A stretch of DNA of 64,000 nucleotides. Origin: a virus (taxonomy: Duplodnaviria > Caudoviricetes). Below, one piece after another: positions 1-53,927 of the stretch (the first letter of the stretch is position 1; the number at the start of each line of letters is the position of its first letter). The position numbers were made by a program, and so were the translations under genes. The DNA lies in the IMG/VR virus record IMGVR_UViG_3300013382_000001, positions 34,185 through 98,184 of that record; one strand, 5' to 3'. Below the pieces are notes generated by a model. The model did no database searches and had not been told where the DNA came from. It saw only the letters and a list, made by a program, of their open reading frames with translations.

Positions 1-484
1 TGCCGACGAAGAATTAAATGCAGGAGATGCGGCTAATTTTATTATTAGCCAAATGAAAGCATTTAATCTTGAGGCTCAAGATGCCGAACATATTATCGAC
101 AGTTTAAATAATGTGTCAAATAATACAGCTGTTAGTTCAGCCGACTTAGCAACTAACATTGGAAAAGCATCTGCTGCATTGGCAGTAGGTGGAAACACAT
201 ATGAAGATGTTCTTAGTTTAATGACGGCAGGCGTTGAGATTACCCGTTCTGGCGCAAAAGTTTCAAGAGCATTGGTATCAGTACAATCTCGTTACAATCA
301 AACTATAGACGAAACATCTTCAACAGGTCAAAAACTTATTGAATGGTATAATAAACATAATATCGCAATTAAAGACCAAGAAGGACAACAAAGAAAGCTT
401 TATGACACATTAAGTGATGTATCAAAGATATGGAATGACCTTAGTAAAGATGAACAACTTTACTATCTTAATATCCAAGCGGGT
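1..484 (+). CDS. Tail tape measure protein, exon 1 (5' end outside window)
   Basis: TP901-like tape measure sequence (AFNLEAQDAEHIIDSLNNVSNNTAVSSADLA...GVEITRSGAKVSRAL). The frame is open from the window edge and ends ...NIQAG at U484, the predicted 5' splice site. Confidence 0.88.
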
Positions 485-16375: not shown

Positions 16376-16778
16376 ATGATTATGATAGGACGGGCTAATA
16401 TATTAAATAATGTTTCGGGGGGGGGGGGGGGGGGATCATTGTTGATATCAAAAAGGATATAGACCTTCCAATCAAAGTTGATTTTATACCAACATTTGTT
16501 GGTATAAATGATAAAACATATAGTGGGTAACTCTTTCGAGATTTATATTAGGTTGTAGTGATGTATACATTATAAATACTGATTTACCTCAAAGTATTTT
16601 GTCGGAAGATGTTCATATATCTTATAAATTTACTGACGCGTTAGATTATAGAACTAAAATGATTTGGGTGTATTCAACCACATCTCAAATGTTGAATAGG
16701 TATATCGATAACGGATCTATATATTCAATATCGCCTATGTCTGATATAGATTTCTTACTTATATGTCAAACGAATTAA
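16376..16778 (+). pseudogene. Poly-G interrupted tail-tip-like gene (MIGRANILNNVSGGG...), currently out of frame
   Basis: AAGGAG RBS; leader, then G18 (16417-16434). Continuation GIIVDIKK...TYSG lies in the -1 frame. A further shift at ggg 16525-16527 leads to VTLSRFILG...ICQTN*. Confidence 0.6.
16417..16434 (+). repeat. G18 homopolymer
   Basis: Directly visible. Confidence 0.9.
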
Positions 16779-24684: not shown

Positions 24685-25253
24685 CTACATCCCTCCAATT
24701 CTCTCGCCACTACTGGGCGAATTTGTGTTTTAATTTTATATGAAACTGCTTGAACGGATATTCCTTTCATTGCAGCAATTTCAACGCAATTATATCCTTG
24801 TCTAAGGAGCTGAAATAATTCTAAGTGAGTGATTTTGCTATTAGAATTATAGACTTTATTGCTTAGCTTCTTTTCGATATTATTAAATGCTTGACTAAGC
24901 TCTAACTGATTATATTGTTTTTCTTCTTCACCATATAATTCTTGCAGTTCAAATTCATCTCCACCTTCGTTCCGCAAAAGTTTATCAAAAGACACTATCT
25001 GGATGTCTTTAGGAGTGGTTTTACGCTTTTGGCTACGAATATATTTATATTTCCCATTATCAAGAGCCTTGCGAACTAATGTAGATAATGCCCCTCTGTT
25101 TGAATCCCATGCACACACAGCATAACAATAATATTCGAGCAAAATATCAAGCCACTCATCTTCATTCAATCCATTATCATATAGATATTTATATACTAAT
25201 TTTATATTATCTTCTGCAATTTTGCGTTGTTCGTCGGTCATTTTTGTTCGCAT
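24681..25253 (-). CDS. Phage sigma-factor-like transcriptional regulator
   Basis: AEDNIKLVY (region 2-like), WDSNRGALST, C-terminal HTH GYNCVEIAAMKGISVQAVS. Confidence 0.7.
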   Translation of the reverse strand: MRTKMTDEQRKIAEDNIKLVYKYLYDNGLNEDEWLDILLEYYCYAVCAWDSNRGALSTLVRKALDNGKYKYIRSQKRKTTPKDIQIVSFDKLLRNEGGDEFELQELYGEEEKQYNQLELSQAFNNIEKKLSNKVYNSNSKITHLELFQLLRQGYNCVEIAAMKGISVQAVSYKIKTQIRPVVARELEGCR

Positions 25254-27607
25254 TATTTCACCTCCTCTGTCAATAATTCTTTAAGCCAAGTATCTCTAAG
25301 TCTTGTTTCATTTACCTTAAGAGCATTGCTAATCGTTGCAACATCACCAATCTCAACCAACATTTCTTTGGCTCTTGTGAGCGACATATAGCATAAATTC
25401 TTTGATAGCATCCGCTGATGACTTGGATGAGTTAAGAAAATAACCCCTTTAGCCTCACATCCTTGACTTGCGTGACTGGTACAAGCATATGAAAGAAGTA
25501 AATTTTCAAGGTCGGATTTACGATATACAATCATTTCTTCGTCAAATTGCACCCATACGTTACCTTTGTTATCAATATCTCGGATAAAGCCAATATCTCC
25601 ATTGTAAATTGTTGCTTCTTCAGGCTGTTGATTGTTTAAGGTTATAAGTTTATCTTCTGCTTCTAAGACTCTTTTATCATTAGCACCAAATTCGACTTTA
25701 AGTCTATCGATATCACCTTGCATTTGAACCGATGTTATCCAATGTCTAAACCCTTCTTCAGTTAAAGCATGATAGTTGTTCTTTTTGTTAATTACTTTGT
25801 CTCCTATATGATAGTTAAGCACCTCCATTGGAACTCCAAGTGACTTTGGCAATTTACGGCTTGCAATATCGTCAATTGGGTCTGCCGGATTATACTTTTT
25901 TTGAATCGCTTGATTGATAGCATAAGTACCGAACTCACCTTTGTTATATGGCGTAAGGATTAGAATATCCTTAGCACGATACTTTTTTCTAAGTTTATCA
26001 TACTCTTCCAAGACTTGTTCAAGTGGGCTATCATTTACTTGAACAAACTTATAATCTTTAATTTTACTTGCATTTTCGCAATTTAACTCGCCTGTACTTG
26101 TAAGGTATTCTTTCCCATTCCGAGCATCTGAGCCAACTGTAGCAATACCCCCAACACCATAACGGAATACCTTTGTGAGTTGCGCACATGGCACAATATG
26201 TGAATCCATAAGGTCTTGAACTAGATTGCCACATTGAATTGAGGCAAGTTGTGCAGAATCAAATACAAGGATGATTTTACTGCAATCTTCAATATTATTA
26301 AGTAGTGTTGAAAATAAGTTTACATCTACCATTGACACCTCATCAATTACAACTACATCTGTATCGATCATTACACCACTTGCTAATTTGCGGTGAATTG
26401 TATTTGCTGCTCGACCTGTTGTTTCGCGAAGACGCTTAGCTGCAATCCCACTTGGAGCAAGAAGAGTGTAAGATTTGTCATTATCTTCAAGTAAGTCAAT
26501 AAGGGCTTTAACAGAACTTGATTTCCCACTACCTGAACTGCCAATCAACATGCTAAAATCATATTTACATATCAGTTCCAAAATACCCATTTGCTCATTA
26601 GTAAGTGTAATACTATCATTGGAACGATACTTTTCAATATCAACACTCCAAATTTGAGCATTGTTGTTTCTATTTTTTATCGTCTGTGCAATATTACATT
26701 CTGATAAATATGTTGCCATGAGCGACAACTTTTTTGCACCTTCATCATAGTAAATTTTAGCACTTTTTTGCACCAAATCTACAATATATTCATTGAGTTT
26801 TGGATTATATTGATTAATTACACTTGCAATATCGGCAGCATCAATTCTTGTGTTACCATCCTCTTCATTACACTCAAGTAGATAACAAGTTAGATACAGA
26901 CATCTCGCTTCAGAATCTTCCCACTTCTCATCGTGTTCACATATTGCCCTATCTGTATTTTGAAAATCTCGCCCAAGTACATCTATCAGTACCTCGTATG
27001 GCTTGTTATCAATCATGTATTGAGCATTTTTAAGCGTTGAATAAGCCGAGCAAAGTTCCCCACATTCCGAAAATGAAAGTGCATAATCGAGGTTATCAAG
27101 GTGGAGTTTATAATATTTAAACCGCTCATTGACCTTATTGATATACCCTTTTAATCGAATCTCGGCTACATTATGGATATTCTTGTAGTCAATTTTATCC
27201 TGTTCACCCATAAGCACTAAACGAATAAAGTTCGGATATGCCTCATGCACATATTGGGCTTGGCTATTAGTCATAAAAGATTTAAGCATTTCAGCTTCTT
27301 GTTCATCGGTCATTTCCTCGATGTCATCTATGTTAAAATCTTCTATCTCTGGGAAGCCTATTAACCAATATTCATAGCCATATGAACCCGTCTTCTCTTC
27401 GATTTCAATAGTGTATTCCTCTCCCACCTCAAGCAGGCTCAAATCACCTTTTAACGTAAAATTCCCATACTTATTGAGGTGTATCTTATCCATATCTGTA
27501 TTAGCTGGCACACACCCATAGATAGAGAATGTACCATCTGCATTTGTAAATACATTGCGTACTACTTTACAACGGATTTTTATTTTCATGTCTACTCCTT
27601 TCTCCAT
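25253..27607 (-). CDS. RecD2-like SF1B helicase
   Basis: GSSGSGKS, LAPSGIAAKRL, DEVSMVD, LTKVFR, GDKVI, NGDIG, YACTSHASQGCE, Y..LTRAK. Confidence 0.88.
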   Translation of the reverse strand: MEKGVDMKIKIRCKVVRNVFTNADGTFSIYGCVPANTDMDKIHLNKYGNFTLKGDLSLLEVGEEYTIEIEEKTGSYGYEYWLIGFPEIEDFNIDDIEEMTDEQEAEMLKSFMTNSQAQYVHEAYPNFIRLVLMGEQDKIDYKNIHNVAEIRLKGYINKVNERFKYYKLHLDNLDYALSFSECGELCSAYSTLKNAQYMIDNKPYEVLIDVLGRDFQNTDRAICEHDEKWEDSEARCLYLTCYLLECNEEDGNTRIDAADIASVINQYNPKLNEYIVDLVQKSAKIYYDEGAKKLSLMATYLSECNIAQTIKNRNNNAQIWSVDIEKYRSNDSITLTNEQMGILELICKYDFSMLIGSSGSGKSSSVKALIDLLEDNDKSYTLLAPSGIAAKRLRETTGRAANTIHRKLASGVMIDTDVVVIDEVSMVDVNLFSTLLNNIEDCSKIILVFDSAQLASIQCGNLVQDLMDSHIVPCAQLTKVFRYGVGGIATVGSDARNGKEYLTSTGELNCENASKIKDYKFVQVNDSPLEQVLEEYDKLRKKYRAKDILILTPYNKGEFGTYAINQAIQKKYNPADPIDDIASRKLPKSLGVPMEVLNYHIGDKVINKKNNYHALTEEGFRHWITSVQMQGDIDRLKVEFGANDKRVLEAEDKLITLNNQQPEEATIYNGDIGFIRDIDNKGNVWVQFDEEMIVYRKSDLENLLLSYACTSHASQGCEAKGVIFLTHPSHQRMLSKNLCYMSLTRAKEMLVEIGDVATISNALKVNETRLRDTWLKELLTEEVK

Positions 27608-27647: not shown

Positions 27648-28955
27648 TTATTTTTCAAAATCTACTCTTTCTAATGCTTTTTCAAAGGCACCGATTCCAC
27701 TAAATAAACTTATGACATTCATCCCTGTTATAAAGTCATTAGGATAAGCATCGTGTAAACATTTGTATATCTCTTCAAGCACATTTACGACAATAGAGTT
27801 ACCTGCTTGTTTGTAGAGCTGTGAATTACTATTAACCTTTTTGGCTCTCTCAAAGTCCTCATCGCTAAATACCATAAGTCTATAACATTCTTTTGGAGTA
27901 AGTTTACGGATTCGGAAATCTTTTGGCGTTAATACTTTGGGTTGTCTATTTCCACCTTCCATTGTGTTAAGTGTTGGGGATAAACCATCTGAACCATAAA
28001 CCCTACGAATCTGCTCATTTCCCTTTATATCTAATAATCCAAGCATTTGAATTTTATTATGCTCATTTTCACATAATTCACTCACACTAAATGCTGACTT
28101 ATTTGTATCTATCTGTGGTGTATTGATAAAAAACTGGTCTACTTTATCTTGTTTAATGTAGTACCTCTCTTCAACCTCATTTTCAAGAAAATCTCTTAAT
28201 CTTAATCCATTATCAAAAGGTTTCGGGAATAAACTCGTATCATTTCTATCATAATACTTATTATGTGTGATGTGTCCTGTATAATTTTGGTTATTATCAA
28301 CATCTTCACGCACAGAAATAGCATAAATACGCTCTCTATTCTGTGGAATATCATAATTTTTCGCATTTAACACTTGATAATAAGTATTATACCCCATATT
28401 TTTCATCTCATCAACATAAGTATCAAATACAGGTTTGTGTTTTTTAGATAAGACATTTTTAACGTTCTCCCAAATAACGAATTTTGGTTTACAATGTCTG
28501 ATAATCTCGACCGAATTCCATAAGAGGCTTGAACGAGTTCCAGAACTCTTTACTCCACCATGCTGCTTACCGGAAATTGAAAAACTTTGACAAGGCGATC
28601 CGTGTGTAATCAAGTCAATATTGGTTGGCAGTTTATCAATATCAATCTGTGTAATATCACCAAGATTTAATCTTTCATCTACTCCATGTATAGCACAATA
28701 ACTCTTTACCGCATACTTATCAAATTCACAAAAATTCACTAAATTATAATTCATTTTATACTCCTTATATTCTTTTTTATTATCTTTGCCATTTGTATGA
28801 CTATCTTTTAGGAGTACCCCCCCCCCCCCCGAGCAGCATATCCCACCACAGTTTGCTGTAGTTAGTGTAGTACAAATACCATGAGATAAATCAATTAAAT
28901 CATATGGCGCAAACACACTTGGAATTTTGCCATACTTATCTATCATTTCTTTCAT
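27648..28955 (-). CDS. Circularly permuted C5-cytosine DNA methyltransferase (internal start 28754), with poly-G-linked N-terminal module
   Basis: Motifs II (FCEFD), IV (GSPCQSFS), VI (WENV), VIII (QNRERIY), IX (RKLTPKEC), X (KQAGNS), then motif I (SLFSGIGAFE) at the C-terminus. AAGGAG RBS precedes MNYNL. Confidence 0.88.
   Translation of the reverse strand: MKEMIDKYGKIPSVFAPYDLIDLSHGICTTLTTANCGGICCSGGGGVLLKDSHTNGKDNKKEYKEYKMNYNLVNFCEFDKYAVKSYCAIHGVDERLNLGDITQIDIDKLPTNIDLITHGSPCQSFSISGKQHGGVKSSGTRSSLLWNSVEIIRHCKPKFVIWENVKNVLSKKHKPVFDTYVDEMKNMGYNTYYQVLNAKNYDIPQNRERIYAISVREDVDNNQNYTGHITHNKYYDRNDTSLFPKPFDNGLRLRDFLENEVEERYYIKQDKVDQFFINTPQIDTNKSAFSVSELCENEHNKIQMLGLLDIKGNEQIRRVYGSDGLSPTLNTMEGGNRQPKVLTPKDFRIRKLTPKECYRLMVFSDEDFERAKKVNSNSQLYKQAGNSIVVNVLEEIYKCLHDAYPNDFITGMNVISLFSGIGAFEKALERVDFEK
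28817..28830 (-). repeat. G14 homopolymer (coding strand)
   Basis: C14 on + strand. Confidence 0.9.
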
Positions 28956-28973
28956 CTTTCTTTCAATCCATAT

Positions 28974-31900
28974 TTATTCTTCCTCCACATCTACATAAGC
29001 ACTAAGTATATATTCAAACTCCCCACTTAGCACCCATTTGTCATTAACTTTTTTTCTTTTTTCCTTCGGCTTAAACACGCACTTCATAATACCGCCCATC
29101 ACATATTTGCCGATATTATCTTTTGGTAACGGATGCTCTTCAAAGTATTTCTTATCCATCTTACATTCAATCACACCACCATCATAGAGCCGATAAAGTT
29201 TAACAAATGGTGTGCCATACTTATTGACTTCGACCCCTTGTAGCGCAAAATAATTCATCGGTGCGCTAAGTGTAGTGAGCATTGTATATCCCATAATCTC
29301 GATTTGGTTTTGGATAAGGGCATATTCACTATCTGGTGGAATGGCATGTTGAGCGAATATCTTGCGACAAAGTGCAAGGTTGTCAAGCTGCGAATATTGT
29401 TTTGCGGTTTCTTTATCGAAACAACCTTCAACATCAAAGTCGCATGGCTTCTTGAGCGTCTTCTTTGTACCATAGGTGTTGTAGATTTCCTTAGCTATGG
29501 TGAGCTGGTTAATTGTGCCAAATTGGGCAAAGTAGCCGATACGGATAAGTTTGTCAAGTTGTGTTTTGTTAATGCTTAAAGATTTAGCATTAGTCAAGAT
29601 ATCAAAGAAATCTTGCGGTTGTTCATTTTGTGCATACTCGTATAAGTTGTCACCAATTTGAATATTCATGTCTTTAATTGAGCCAATGCCTTTATAAATT
29701 GAATTTTCGCTTTTATCCATCCAAAAGTCGCCTTTTGATTTACCAAATACAGGAGGTAAAATCTTGAATCCTTGTTTAATTGCATAATTTGTAATCGCTT
29801 GGCTTTTAAGTTTGTCTGTTTGGTAAATATTAAAAGCAACAGTCAAGAACTCCAATGGATGATAATATCTTAACCATCCAACCGCATATCCAATCATCGA
29901 GTATGGCAAAGCATGGTTTTCTGAAAATAGATACGAGCTTGCGTCTTCAATAACTTGTATAAAGTTTACAATAAGTCGTTCGGATTCTTCTTTGCTAACG
30001 CCATACTTTTCAAGCATCGTTTTTATGAAACCTTCTTTGATTTGTGGAATAAACTTGTCAGTGCCGGTCTTCTTCGCGAAGCCACGTCTGACTACGTCTG
30101 CCATACCCATTGTATATCCACAAAATTGATGTAGAAAGTTGATAATTTGCTCTTGGTATACTAAGTACCCAAGTGTAGGTGCAAGCAATTTATTCAATGC
30201 TTCATGTCCATTATCTCTATATATTCCTTGTGCCAACTCGTCACGATAACTTGCTCCTGCGGGTCGAATTGCACCATTACCTACCGACATAAGGTCAAGG
30301 TATGAAAAGTTTGAGTTAAGTTTTTTAATCTTTTCAACTGTTTCATCAGAAAAGAGCTGTTTTAAGTACGCTTGTGATGAATCACTCTCCCACTGGAATA
30401 TACAAGTTGTATCTTCTCTAATACTATCCCATACTTTTTTATCATTAAAGTCAATGTTTTCTGGTAACAGTCTATCAATACCAAGCAAATCACATGTTTG
30501 ATTGATTAAACCCACCGCATCCAATCCCAAACAATCCAGCTTAACATAGTTTAACGAATCAATCTCTTTCATATTAAGCTGCGATACTGGTCGACTATTA
30601 TTAGCTACCGAACACAACCCCACACTGTCATCGAGTGGTATTGGCGATACAATACAAGCACTTGGGTGAGTACCGATTGATACGATTGTTCCTTGAATAA
30701 GATCTACATAACGGAAGATTTCTGGATATTGCTGGCGATATTTTTCTTCATTGATCTCAATGTTATTGGTGATTTCGTTGGCTTCTTGTGGTGTCATATC
30801 AAAAGCTCTAGCCACATCTTTGAACGCACCTTTGAGGGCTACGGTATTAAAGGTAATGATTTCTGAACAATACAACCCTTGTTTTGCATAAAGCAAATCT
30901 CGAACCTTATCTCTATCAGTGTCAAACCAATCAGTATCAATATCAGCAAGCGAAACTCTTTCCACATTCATAAAACGATCGAAGTTAAGATGCCATTCAA
31001 TCGGATCTACGTGTGTAATGCCAAGTAAATAACATATCAACGATCCAGAACACGACCCCCTTGAATAACCATACCCAACACCTTGTTTGCGTAATTCACC
31101 CTTATACATTTCTTCAAGCAAGAAAAAGTTTTGAGATTTGTTATGTCGAATAGCTTTTAATTCGTATTCGATCTCGTCTTTATACTTTTGTGGGTTCGGC
31201 TTAGAGTCTATGCCTCTCCACTTCCACCCTTCAGCAATCTTTTCAAGTAACACTTTATCTGAATCTTCGTACAACTTAGGATACTTAAAGCCTCTATCAA
31301 GCTCAAACGATTCAACCATATTTGCTACTTTATTCGTATTTTCTAAGGCTTGCAACACAACTTCTCGTGGTATGACACCTTGTTCCTCAAACATCTTTAC
31401 AAGTTCATCATAAGTACGCCATACCATATCGAACTCACCTTCGTTATCAAAGAACACCTTTTTTGAGCGTTGTAATAACAATCTAGCGTCCGCATGTTCT
31501 TCGTTAAGTGCATGGGTGTCTGTGCCTACAAGCAGTTGTAAGTTATACTTTTGCGACAAATCATAAAGTAATTTGTTATACTCTGTTTGTCTTGGACTTG
31601 GATGTTGTGCAATCTCTAAGAAACAGCGTTCTCGATTTGTTATATAAAACTGTAATAATGCAAATTTCAATTCTGGGTCATTCGATGCAAAGATGCCCCC
31701 TAAACACCCAGACGAAACAATAACATTGTCACTTGTGTTTGTAAGTTCTGCAAACGTGATTCTTGGAGCGAAGTAATAATGCCCGTCGGTTCGATTAAAC
31801 GATATACTTGAGAGTTTATTAAGCTCTTTTACACCATCATAGTTTTTAGCAATAAGCAAACAATGGTAGTTGTCTCTAACTTTTTCTTCGAGTGACTTAG

Positions 31901-32138
31901 TGATATAAAATTCAGCTGCGTGTATATATTTTAATCCTGCTTTTTCGCATGCTTCTTTTTTGTGGAGCCATTCAAAGAACGATCCGTGTTCGCTGAATGC
32001 CAATGCTGTCATACCACACTCTTTGGCTTTGTCGATATAATTGGTGTATTTAGTAACAGAATCAATATTAGTTACTCCATTTGACAACATTGTATGACAA
32101 TGTAATACTGTATAATTTTTACTGCAACCAATCATCAT
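28974..32138 (-). CDS. dnaE: DNA polymerase III alpha subunit
   Basis: PHP domain HCHT, SEHG, DTH; RGS..GSLICYLLGIT; ADIDTD; KLDCLGL; FQWES; YQEQ; Y.FSENHA. Confidence 0.93.
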   Translation of the reverse strand: MMIGCSKNYTVLHCHTMLSNGVTNIDSVTKYTNYIDKAKECGMTALAFSEHGSFFEWLHKKEACEKAGLKYIHAAEFYITKSLEEKVRDNYHCLLIAKNYDGVKELNKLSSISFNRTDGHYYFAPRITFAELTNTSDNVIVSSGCLGGIFASNDPELKFALLQFYITNRERCFLEIAQHPSPRQTEYNKLLYDLSQKYNLQLLVGTDTHALNEEHADARLLLQRSKKVFFDNEGEFDMVWRTYDELVKMFEEQGVIPREVVLQALENTNKVANMVESFELDRGFKYPKLYEDSDKVLLEKIAEGWKWRGIDSKPNPQKYKDEIEYELKAIRHNKSQNFFLLEEMYKGELRKQGVGYGYSRGSCSGSLICYLLGITHVDPIEWHLNFDRFMNVERVSLADIDTDWFDTDRDKVRDLLYAKQGLYCSEIITFNTVALKGAFKDVARAFDMTPQEANEITNNIEINEEKYRQQYPEIFRYVDLIQGTIVSIGTHPSACIVSPIPLDDSVGLCSVANNSRPVSQLNMKEIDSLNYVKLDCLGLDAVGLINQTCDLLGIDRLLPENIDFNDKKVWDSIREDTTCIFQWESDSSQAYLKQLFSDETVEKIKKLNSNFSYLDLMSVGNGAIRPAGASYRDELAQGIYRDNGHEALNKLLAPTLGYLVYQEQIINFLHQFCGYTMGMADVVRRGFAKKTGTDKFIPQIKEGFIKTMLEKYGVSKEESERLIVNFIQVIEDASSYLFSENHALPYSMIGYAVGWLRYYHPLEFLTVAFNIYQTDKLKSQAITNYAIKQGFKILPPVFGKSKGDFWMDKSENSIYKGIGSIKDMNIQIGDNLYEYAQNEQPQDFFDILTNAKSLSINKTQLDKLIRIGYFAQFGTINQLTIAKEIYNTYGTKKTLKKPCDFDVEGCFDKETAKQYSQLDNLALCRKIFAQHAIPPDSEYALIQNQIEIMGYTMLTTLSAPMNYFALQGVEVNKYGTPFVKLYRLYDGGVIECKMDKKYFEEHPLPKDNIGKYVMGGIMKCVFKPKEKRKKVNDKWVLSGEFEYILSAYVDVEEE

Positions 32139-53610: not shown

Positions 53611-53927
53611 TTATGTCCAAGGAGCAACAGATGTTGCCTCATAGTTGCTACCAACGACAATAATATTAGTTGCAAGCTGTCTATTTCCATTTGTATCTGA
53701 TATAATCACATCTTTATAATTTGTAGTTTGAGCAGCATATCTTTTTCCATCATAATCAGTTCCTATAAAAAATTTATAAGAAGTACTATCTGCAACACCA
53801 ATATTATATTTACTATTTATCCAATTCTCCCATGTCATATTCTCATCAGCATAATAAGAACAGTTGTTTACACGAAATGCCCCCCCGAAACACTATTTTT
53901 CGATACCATATTTGTCATTCCTATCAT
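53611..53927 (-). pseudogene. Poly-G interrupted tail-tip-like gene (MIGMTNMVSKNSVSGG...), currently out of frame
   Basis: GGAGG RBS; ATGA overlap with upstream gene; G7 at 53880-53886. One extra G gives ...SGGAFRVNNCSYYADENMTWENWINSKYN... Confidence 0.68.

Follow-up and report, generated by a model that had tools for sequence, protein, structure and literature searches.

The phage genome analyzed here carries a natural circularly permuted C5-cytosine DNA methyltransferase gene, in which motif I follows motif X at the C-terminus. The explanation that best accounts for the observations jointly, to which we give a probability of about 0.8, is an active natural permutant of the SPR/SPbeta-type lineage, which arose by duplication and bears a module that is switched by a G tract. 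This module, whose attachment appears to be conditional, is a more unusual part than the permutation. The window, which is the whole 64,000-nucleotide stretch of DNA that was analyzed, belongs to the record of a complete virus (98,184 bp with direct terminal repeats). The gene is located in the middle of that genome, between the genes for a DnaE-type PolIII alpha subunit (28974..32138) and a RecD-like SF1 helicase (25253..27607). The carrier is a virulent-type phage genome, and the phage is described as gut-type.

Motif order, fold and known counterparts

The gene forms one open frame of 435 amino acids plus stop on the minus strand (Table 1). Identical or near-identical products of 433-436 amino acids are present in other samples. 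The original prediction gave the interval 27648-28754, which is exactly the 368-residue core beginning with its own ATG (28752-28754), but left out 67 in-frame codons upstream (28755-28955). It also placed a ribosome-binding site ahead of the core start, where we found the sequence AAGGAG. In one relative (P0006), the G tract is out of frame and the gene is called as a 368-residue protein.

Table 1. Features of the permuted methyltransferase gene, in window positions
Feature	Positions	Strand	Description
Full frame	27648..28955	-	Target-recognition domain (TRD)-like N-terminal module, then Gly tract, then permuted C5 methyltransferase
N-terminal extension, 67 codons	28755..28955	-	TRD-like type D module and charged linker
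G14 homopolymer (C14 on the plus strand)	28817..28830	-	Gly-Gly-Gly-Gly; in-frame join of extension and core
Shine-Dalgarno AAGGAG	28761..28766	-	6 nt ahead of the core ATG
Core enzyme, 368 aa	27648..28754	-	Separate start codon; motif order II to X, I
Motif II, beta2 and acidic residue E77	28710..28742	-	Start of the core; aligns from M.HhaI 39; nearly invariant in 62 homologues
Motif IV, catalytic Cys122 (G-S-P-C-Q)	28578..28601	-	P121 and C122 invariant
Motif VI, E-N-V, residues 163-165	28455..28475	-	From M.HhaI alignment and homologue alignment
Motif VIII, Q-N-R-E-R	28323..28343	-	From M.HhaI alignment and homologue alignment
Variable region with resident TRD	27918..28292	-	TL motif at residue 328
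Motif IX	27873..27914	-	Residue 350
Motif X, G-N-S helix	27780..27809	-	Residue 385
X-to-I linker, about 12 residues	27723..27758	-	Old C-terminus to old N-terminus; P405 invariant
Motif I: beta1, F-x-G-x-G loop, helix alphaA	27663..27722	-	Residues 412-431

The motifs are arranged in the order II-III-IV-VI-VIII-TRD-IX-X-I. Residues 69-398 match positions 21-320 of the PF00145 profile with an E-value of 3.6e-69 (234 bits against a cut-off of 22). When the last 30 residues were used as a separate query, PF00145 alone was matched, at profile positions 1-23 (E 0.009), and the match was placed at residues 412-434. Profile positions 1-23 thus come after positions 21-320, and the canonical linear order I to X is absent. 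A phmmer search against the PDB aligned residues 76-396 with M.HhaI 39-314 and residues 409-431 with M.HhaI 9-31. The order II to X followed by I, which the original prediction had claimed, is confirmed by the Pfam match, the search with the C-terminus only, and the alignment to M.HhaI that had been suggested with it, in which both segments align in permuted order.

The P-C of the catalytic motif IV, E-N-V of motif VI, R-x-R of motif VIII, FxGxG of motif I, and motifs IX and X are all there. The break is located in the alphaA/beta2 loop between motifs I and II, with an overlap of a few residues between both ends, and four further residues follow the motif I segment before the stop. The motif positions support the breakpoint as predicted, which differs from that of M.BssHII, where IX and X were moved to the N-terminus. 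A new terminus at motif II does exist in the core, but it is not simply free in this phage: it is preceded by the in-frame TRD-like extension, which appears to be conditionally fused. The permuted gene gives the sole PF00145 match in the complete 98-kb genome; therefore, motif I has no second source in the genome.

The AlphaFold model of the core, calculated with the homologue alignment, superimposes on M.HhaI (1fjx_A) with a Z score of 21.8 and an rmsd of 3.0 Å over 274 residues, and its predicted architecture is the two-domain fold of M.HhaI. At the C-terminus, pLDDT values are 84-93 for the strand (412-417) and the helix (423-430), and 91-97 for the equivalent strand-helix of a relative (L007). 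Sequential structure aligners cannot display the tail strand within the sheet; homology and the confidence values suggest that it fills the beta1 slot between beta2 and beta4. The chain would start at beta2 (motif II) and pass through the catalytic motifs, the resident TRD, and motifs IX and X. The conserved 12-residue linker would then lead to beta1, the FxGxG loop, and alphaA, which would fold back into the center of the Rossmann sheet and complete the AdoMet pocket. From the sequence, we infer that the enzyme is active in cytosine-C5 DNA methylation, and the phage genome is probably methylated by it against host restriction.

The same topology has a counterpart among engineered enzymes. Albert et al. 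(2018, PLoS One; PMC5944983) permuted M.MpeI and M.SssI and obtained ten active topologies. Among 20,677 REBASE entries, which they searched for an order with X preceding I, they found 27 natural permutants, all of them broken in the variable region (M.BssHII, M.Alw26I, M2.Eco31I, M.Esp3I, and M2.BsaI are named), and the authors concluded that nature favors breaks that keep both domains intact (PMC5944983). Two of the constructs, cp35M.MpeI and cp33M.SssI, were active in vivo and protected plasmids, and cp35M.MpeI was poorly soluble (PMC5944983). As in the phage enzyme, these constructs have their new N-terminus after the motif I helix and motif X joined to motif I. Residues 63..406 of our model align to M.MpeI 29..392, which places M68 near M.MpeI residue 34. 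The phage enzyme can therefore be designated as the natural counterpart of cp35M.MpeI, whose break between motifs I and II we deduced from this alignment. The engineered permutants are laboratory constructs and CG-specific, whereas the phage family is natural and widespread and possesses a conserved 12-residue linker and terminal modules. Natural enzymes broken between motifs I and II were not reported in the literature that we searched, and our results support the II-X-I topology being new for nature. It is not new in principle, because laboratory constructs of the same topology were active in vivo.

The natural type H permutants (M.BssHII and others) share with the phage enzyme the fold and the succession of X and then I in one chain. 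In type H, however, the break lies in the variable region, motifs IX and X come first, and the two domains remain intact. The phage enzyme is broken between beta1/alphaA and beta2, inside the AdoMet-binding half. Its N-terminus is not in the variable region, and motifs IX and X follow II-VIII. The plant enzymes DRM2 and NtDRM also have motif X directly followed by motif I, and residues 349-431 align to NtDRM 174-250 (E 6e-5). The DRM order is VI-X and then I-V with the break between V and VI, whereas the phage enzyme has II-V before VI, and only the X-to-I junction is common. DRM is a eukaryotic enzyme that acts as a dimer in RNA-directed DNA methylation.

The closest cultured relatives are the multispecific enzymes of Bacillus phages (M.SPRI, SPbeta group, M.H2I, and M.Rho11sI), with 38-42% identity over residues 72-406. 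They share with the phage enzyme modular TRDs with a TL motif as well as core and TRD kinship, which places the latter, as judged by sequence, in the SPR/SPbeta-type lineage of phage methyltransferases. The SPR/SPbeta enzymes have the order I-X and hold all TRDs between motifs VIII and IX, whereas the phage enzyme has one TRD there and one TRD-like module at the N-terminus. Its variable region contains a single TL module, compared with four to five tandem modules in canonical metagenomic relatives (P0091 and P0097). The resident TRD is of a type that canonical multispecific relatives (P0097 and P0111) also have in their variable region.

Distribution and origin of the permuted family

Among the best 120 protein clusters, approximately 42 have the permuted order (50-99% identity, contigs of ~95-104 kb from ENA, Logan, and NCBI), and the remainder are canonical. 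The IMG/VR loci contain 63 distinct ORFs in permuted order, with 38-47% identity and mostly on contigs of ~150 kb. The order II-X-I therefore recurs in a survey of phage homologues, as had been proposed with the original prediction. It is carried by two phage clades (designated as the 100-kb and 150-kb clades) with 38-99% identity overall. When 62 permuted sequences are aligned, little or no variation is seen in the catalytic motifs, the linker, and motif I. The invariant residues include the catalytic Cys, ENV, GNS, and P405 of the linker, as well as S416, F418, S419, G420, G422, and E425 of motif I.

The unusual order alone and the long homopolymer in the region could raise the suspicion of an assembly artefact, or of an inactive pseudogene with an irrelevant C-terminal motif I. 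Both are very improbable. The same order was found in more than 100 independent contigs from four sources (ENA, Logan, JGI, and NCBI), and the record, which is complete and has terminal repeats, carries the gene in mid-genome; both points speak against an artefact. The gene has no internal stops and all catalytic residues are invariant in the 62 homologues, which speaks against a pseudogene. Because the order is conserved and under selection in many independent assemblies, the permuted arrangement is neither an artefact nor a dead gene. The linker common to the permuted relatives argues for a single origin of the permutation. The tblastn searches with the whole protein and with the X-linker-I piece revealed no cultured phage with the permuted order, and the few matches that ran from X into I came from Bacillus phages in which two canonical genes abut. 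A search for near-identical DNA in phage records gave only a weak match to the polymerase.

The first residue of the motif I segment is a Met, which is conserved in the 100-kb clade and corresponds to the position of the canonical start codon. This Met is probably a fossil start codon. Most likely, tandem methyltransferase genes were fused in frame and then trimmed at both ends, a route shown by directed evolution (Peisajovich et al. 2006, as cited in PMC5944983). Duplication, fusion, and trimming predict intermediates of the type seen in Bacillus phage BC-VP and in P0113. In BC-VP (Herelleviridae; L081, 74133-77103), three canonical methyltransferase genes abut in one frame with single stops between them, and P0113 is an in-frame fusion of a canonical metagenomic relative with a second C5 methyltransferase. 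These arrangements are plausible precursor states. Two other routes were considered and rejected. RNA circularization or splicing that restores the canonical order does not fit, because relatives have tails of different length after alphaA, all of them closed by an ordinary stop. An intein-related rearrangement does not fit either, because the inteins of the relatives are located at the catalytic Cys and not at the junction.

C5 methyltransferases are a textbook case of topology evolution by duplication and trimming. The published view that we found is that nature breaks them only in the variable region, from which a family broken inside the cofactor-binding half departs. A large natural family indicates that a topology so far reached only by design is viable and selected. 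For split or permuted methyltransferase tools in targeted methylation, the family is a source of natural linkers and termini.

Several permuted relatives show further peculiarities. Many of them (P0021, P0023, P0026, P0027, P0030, P0032-P0036, and P0121) contain an intein in motif IV with Pfam matches to Hint, intein-splicing, and LAGLIDADG families, and the catalytic Cys is the +1 residue of the downstream extein. In the alignment, the P0031 product is scrambled over part of the sequence between motifs VI and VIII, and the gene on its contigs (L096 and L097) fits the database product only when TAG is read as Gln; it could be a frameshifted copy or come from a phage with stop-codon reassignment. 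L015:5995-7392 and most ORFs of the 150-kb clade have a TTG start codon and a zinc-ribbon-like CxxC...CxxC insert of ~35 residues between motifs IV and VI.

The N-terminal module and its G tract

The type D module contains a T-L-T-T motif within residues 25-38, which resembles the end of a target-recognition domain. A phmmer search of the 67-residue extension against 1.8 billion representatives retrieved its own clade and low-complexity noise only, and a Pfam search of the extension gave nothing. An HMM of type D matches small frames after motif I in the 150-kb clade with E-values of 1e-3 to 6e-11, and in canonical variable regions it gives no more than motif-level, non-significant matches.

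The module is joined to the core through the G14 tract. The window has a GC content of 35% and three G/C runs of at least 7 nucleotides, and the expected count of runs of at least 14 is 5e-6. The tract is thus a simple repeat in a coding frame far longer than expected by chance, which is one property of phase-variable loci. The second property, variation of the tract length among near-identical genomes with both in-frame and out-of-frame states, was also observed. Among proteins with at least 98% identity, G12 (three samples) and G9 (two samples) are in frame, and G13 and G11 are out of frame. In diverged contigs (60-75% identity), G6 and G9 occur in frame, and G6, G7, and G10 occur out of frame. 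Over the clade, 10 contigs are in the ON state and 7 are OFF, and all 17 have an open frame upstream of the tract. In the window, an additional G is found nine bases upstream of the tract, and with it G14 brings the frame back as a second, compensating one-base change. Long G runs are error-prone in short-read assemblies, but assembly error does not readily account for the G6 and G7 states or for the replicated G9, G10, and G12 states.

An out-of-frame tract ends the upstream ORF after no more than ~5 codons, and gene calling then gives a gene of 50-54 amino acids. In every genome read, a Shine-Dalgarno sequence of the core (AAGGAG or GAGGAG) is located 6-8 nt before its own ATG. Because the core keeps its own ribosome-binding site and start, the tract appears to toggle the fusion of the module and not the enzyme itself. 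In the ON state, as in this phage, the module would be fused to the core, and in the OFF state it would be a separate peptide of ~50 residues; the core would be translated from its own ribosome-binding site in both. In the phasevarion methyltransferases (modA and the homopolymers of Helicobacter and Campylobacter), an in-frame repeat also varies in length among close relatives and sets ON and OFF, but there the repeats switch the whole enzyme off. The G14 locus differs in that only the fusion of an accessory module would be switched, and in its phage carrier.

The dN/dS ratio of the module is 0.09-0.32 where dS is measurable, as calculated over 35 codons among lineages some of which have saturated dS, and it is equally low in OFF genomes. 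The module is thus under purifying selection in ON and OFF genomes alike. In four relatives, the module is cleanly deleted, indicating that it is accessory and dispensable. The deletions could also mean that the core is a real permutant but the module and G tract are a decaying relic of the duplication, with length changes as neutral slippage in junk. It would agree with such decay that AlphaFold neither folds nor docks the module (pLDDT 21-40), and that its canonical TRD counterpart was not found. We nevertheless consider a relic quite unlikely, given the low dN/dS in both states, the open frame in all 17 contigs, the compensating change that restores the frame in the window, and strong selection on homologous modules in the sister clade (omega 0.06-0.25 in close pairs). 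AlphaFold was run on the full protein and on a naturally fused relative that bears two extra modules, and in both models the terminal modules and the resident TRDs alike are of low confidence and unplaced.

In relatives, the ATG of the extension directly follows the stop of PolIII alpha, behind a GGAGGA box in the end of that gene. This proximity, the ribosome-binding site retained by the core, and the undocked module in the models would also fit a selected leader or small protein with a role other than target recognition. Such a leader could couple translation of the methyltransferase to the polymerase gene or control the level or timing of the enzyme, with the G tract tuning expression. We regard this as unlikely, since the peptide sequence itself is conserved with a T-L/I-T-T motif typical of TRD ends, and its homologues in the sister clade stand in arrays with modules that are 50-62% identical to TRDs of canonical multispecific variable regions.

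In the window (28953-28975), the position of the relatives' ATG is occupied by ATA, and the first ATG is found six codons further, at 28955. Because the abutting ATG is replaced, this phage may produce less of the long form. In another contig (L089:1197-1553), an upstream ORF of 118 amino acids runs from the polymerase stop and encodes a type C TRD module ahead of type D, which indicates that N-terminal arrays can hold several modules. The only other long G/C homopolymer of the window is a G18 run at 16417-16434, and a C7 run is present at 53880. Slippery repeats seem to be used at several loci of this phage.

Modules of the sister clade and their possible role

In the 150-kb clade, the main frame ends ~25 codons past motif I, and a -1 frame without a start codon runs on for 51-197 codons and encodes one to three modules. 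Gene callers miss such start-less frames, which are therefore absent from protein databases. Several of the module types are 50-62% identical to variable-region segments of the canonical relatives with four to five modules (blastp E 1e-12 to 1e-17), and omega is ~0.02-0.2 for types A and C, which indicates strong selection.

The junction consists of an in-frame A_AAT_TTT heptamer, a spacer of 5-6 nt, and a hairpin of 11 bp whose loop contains the stop codon, as exemplified by L042:7513-7566 with a 6-nt spacer (loci L004-L080). The heptamer is present in 61 of the 71 distinct loci, is accompanied by the hairpin at 5-6 nt in 52, and additionally by a -1 ORF (51-197 codons with no Met in the first 25) in 50. 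In the hairpin, 98.2% of the alignment cells are paired with five compensatory pairs, values that none of 500 shuffles reached, and the folding energy is -19.5 kcal/mol (z -4.7). The element has the sequence features of a candidate -1 programmed ribosomal frameshift signal, which belongs to the 150-kb clade and not to this window. The features required of such a signal are an X_XXY_YYZ heptamer in frame, a spacer of 5-9 nt, a stable structure behind it, and a following ORF that lacks a start codon. Two loci have an in-frame fusion of the module, and one has a C9 tract instead.

In circular order, both clades put extra TRD-type modules between motif I and motif II. The two sites of attachment are one spot in space, i.e. 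the opened loop, and attachment appears from the sequences to be conditional in both. We tentatively propose, at somewhat less than even odds, that the termini in the motif I/II loop serve as a docking port for optional target-recognition modules, giving multispecificity under the control of recoding and mixed methylation. Modules would be attached at the N-terminus through a hypermutable G tract in the 100-kb clade, and at the C-terminus through a -1 frameshift signal, a C tract, or a plain in-frame fusion in the 150-kb clade. Each phage or burst would then contain the core enzyme and a set fraction with added specificity, and the TRDs would act from outside the classical variable region. The mixed methylation would hedge escape from host restriction against exposure to methyl-dependent nucleases. 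The modules may alter target choice. If they do so, TRDs can function while attached at a distance from their classical site, and phages diversify their own epigenetic camouflage through slippage and frameshifting.

A pair of related loci in the 150-kb clade differs in the length of the junction tract, which is C9 in L050:7396-7465 and C5 in L048:7486-7555. In this subclade, the C-tract length sets whether the frame reads through from motif I into the TRD module or stops.
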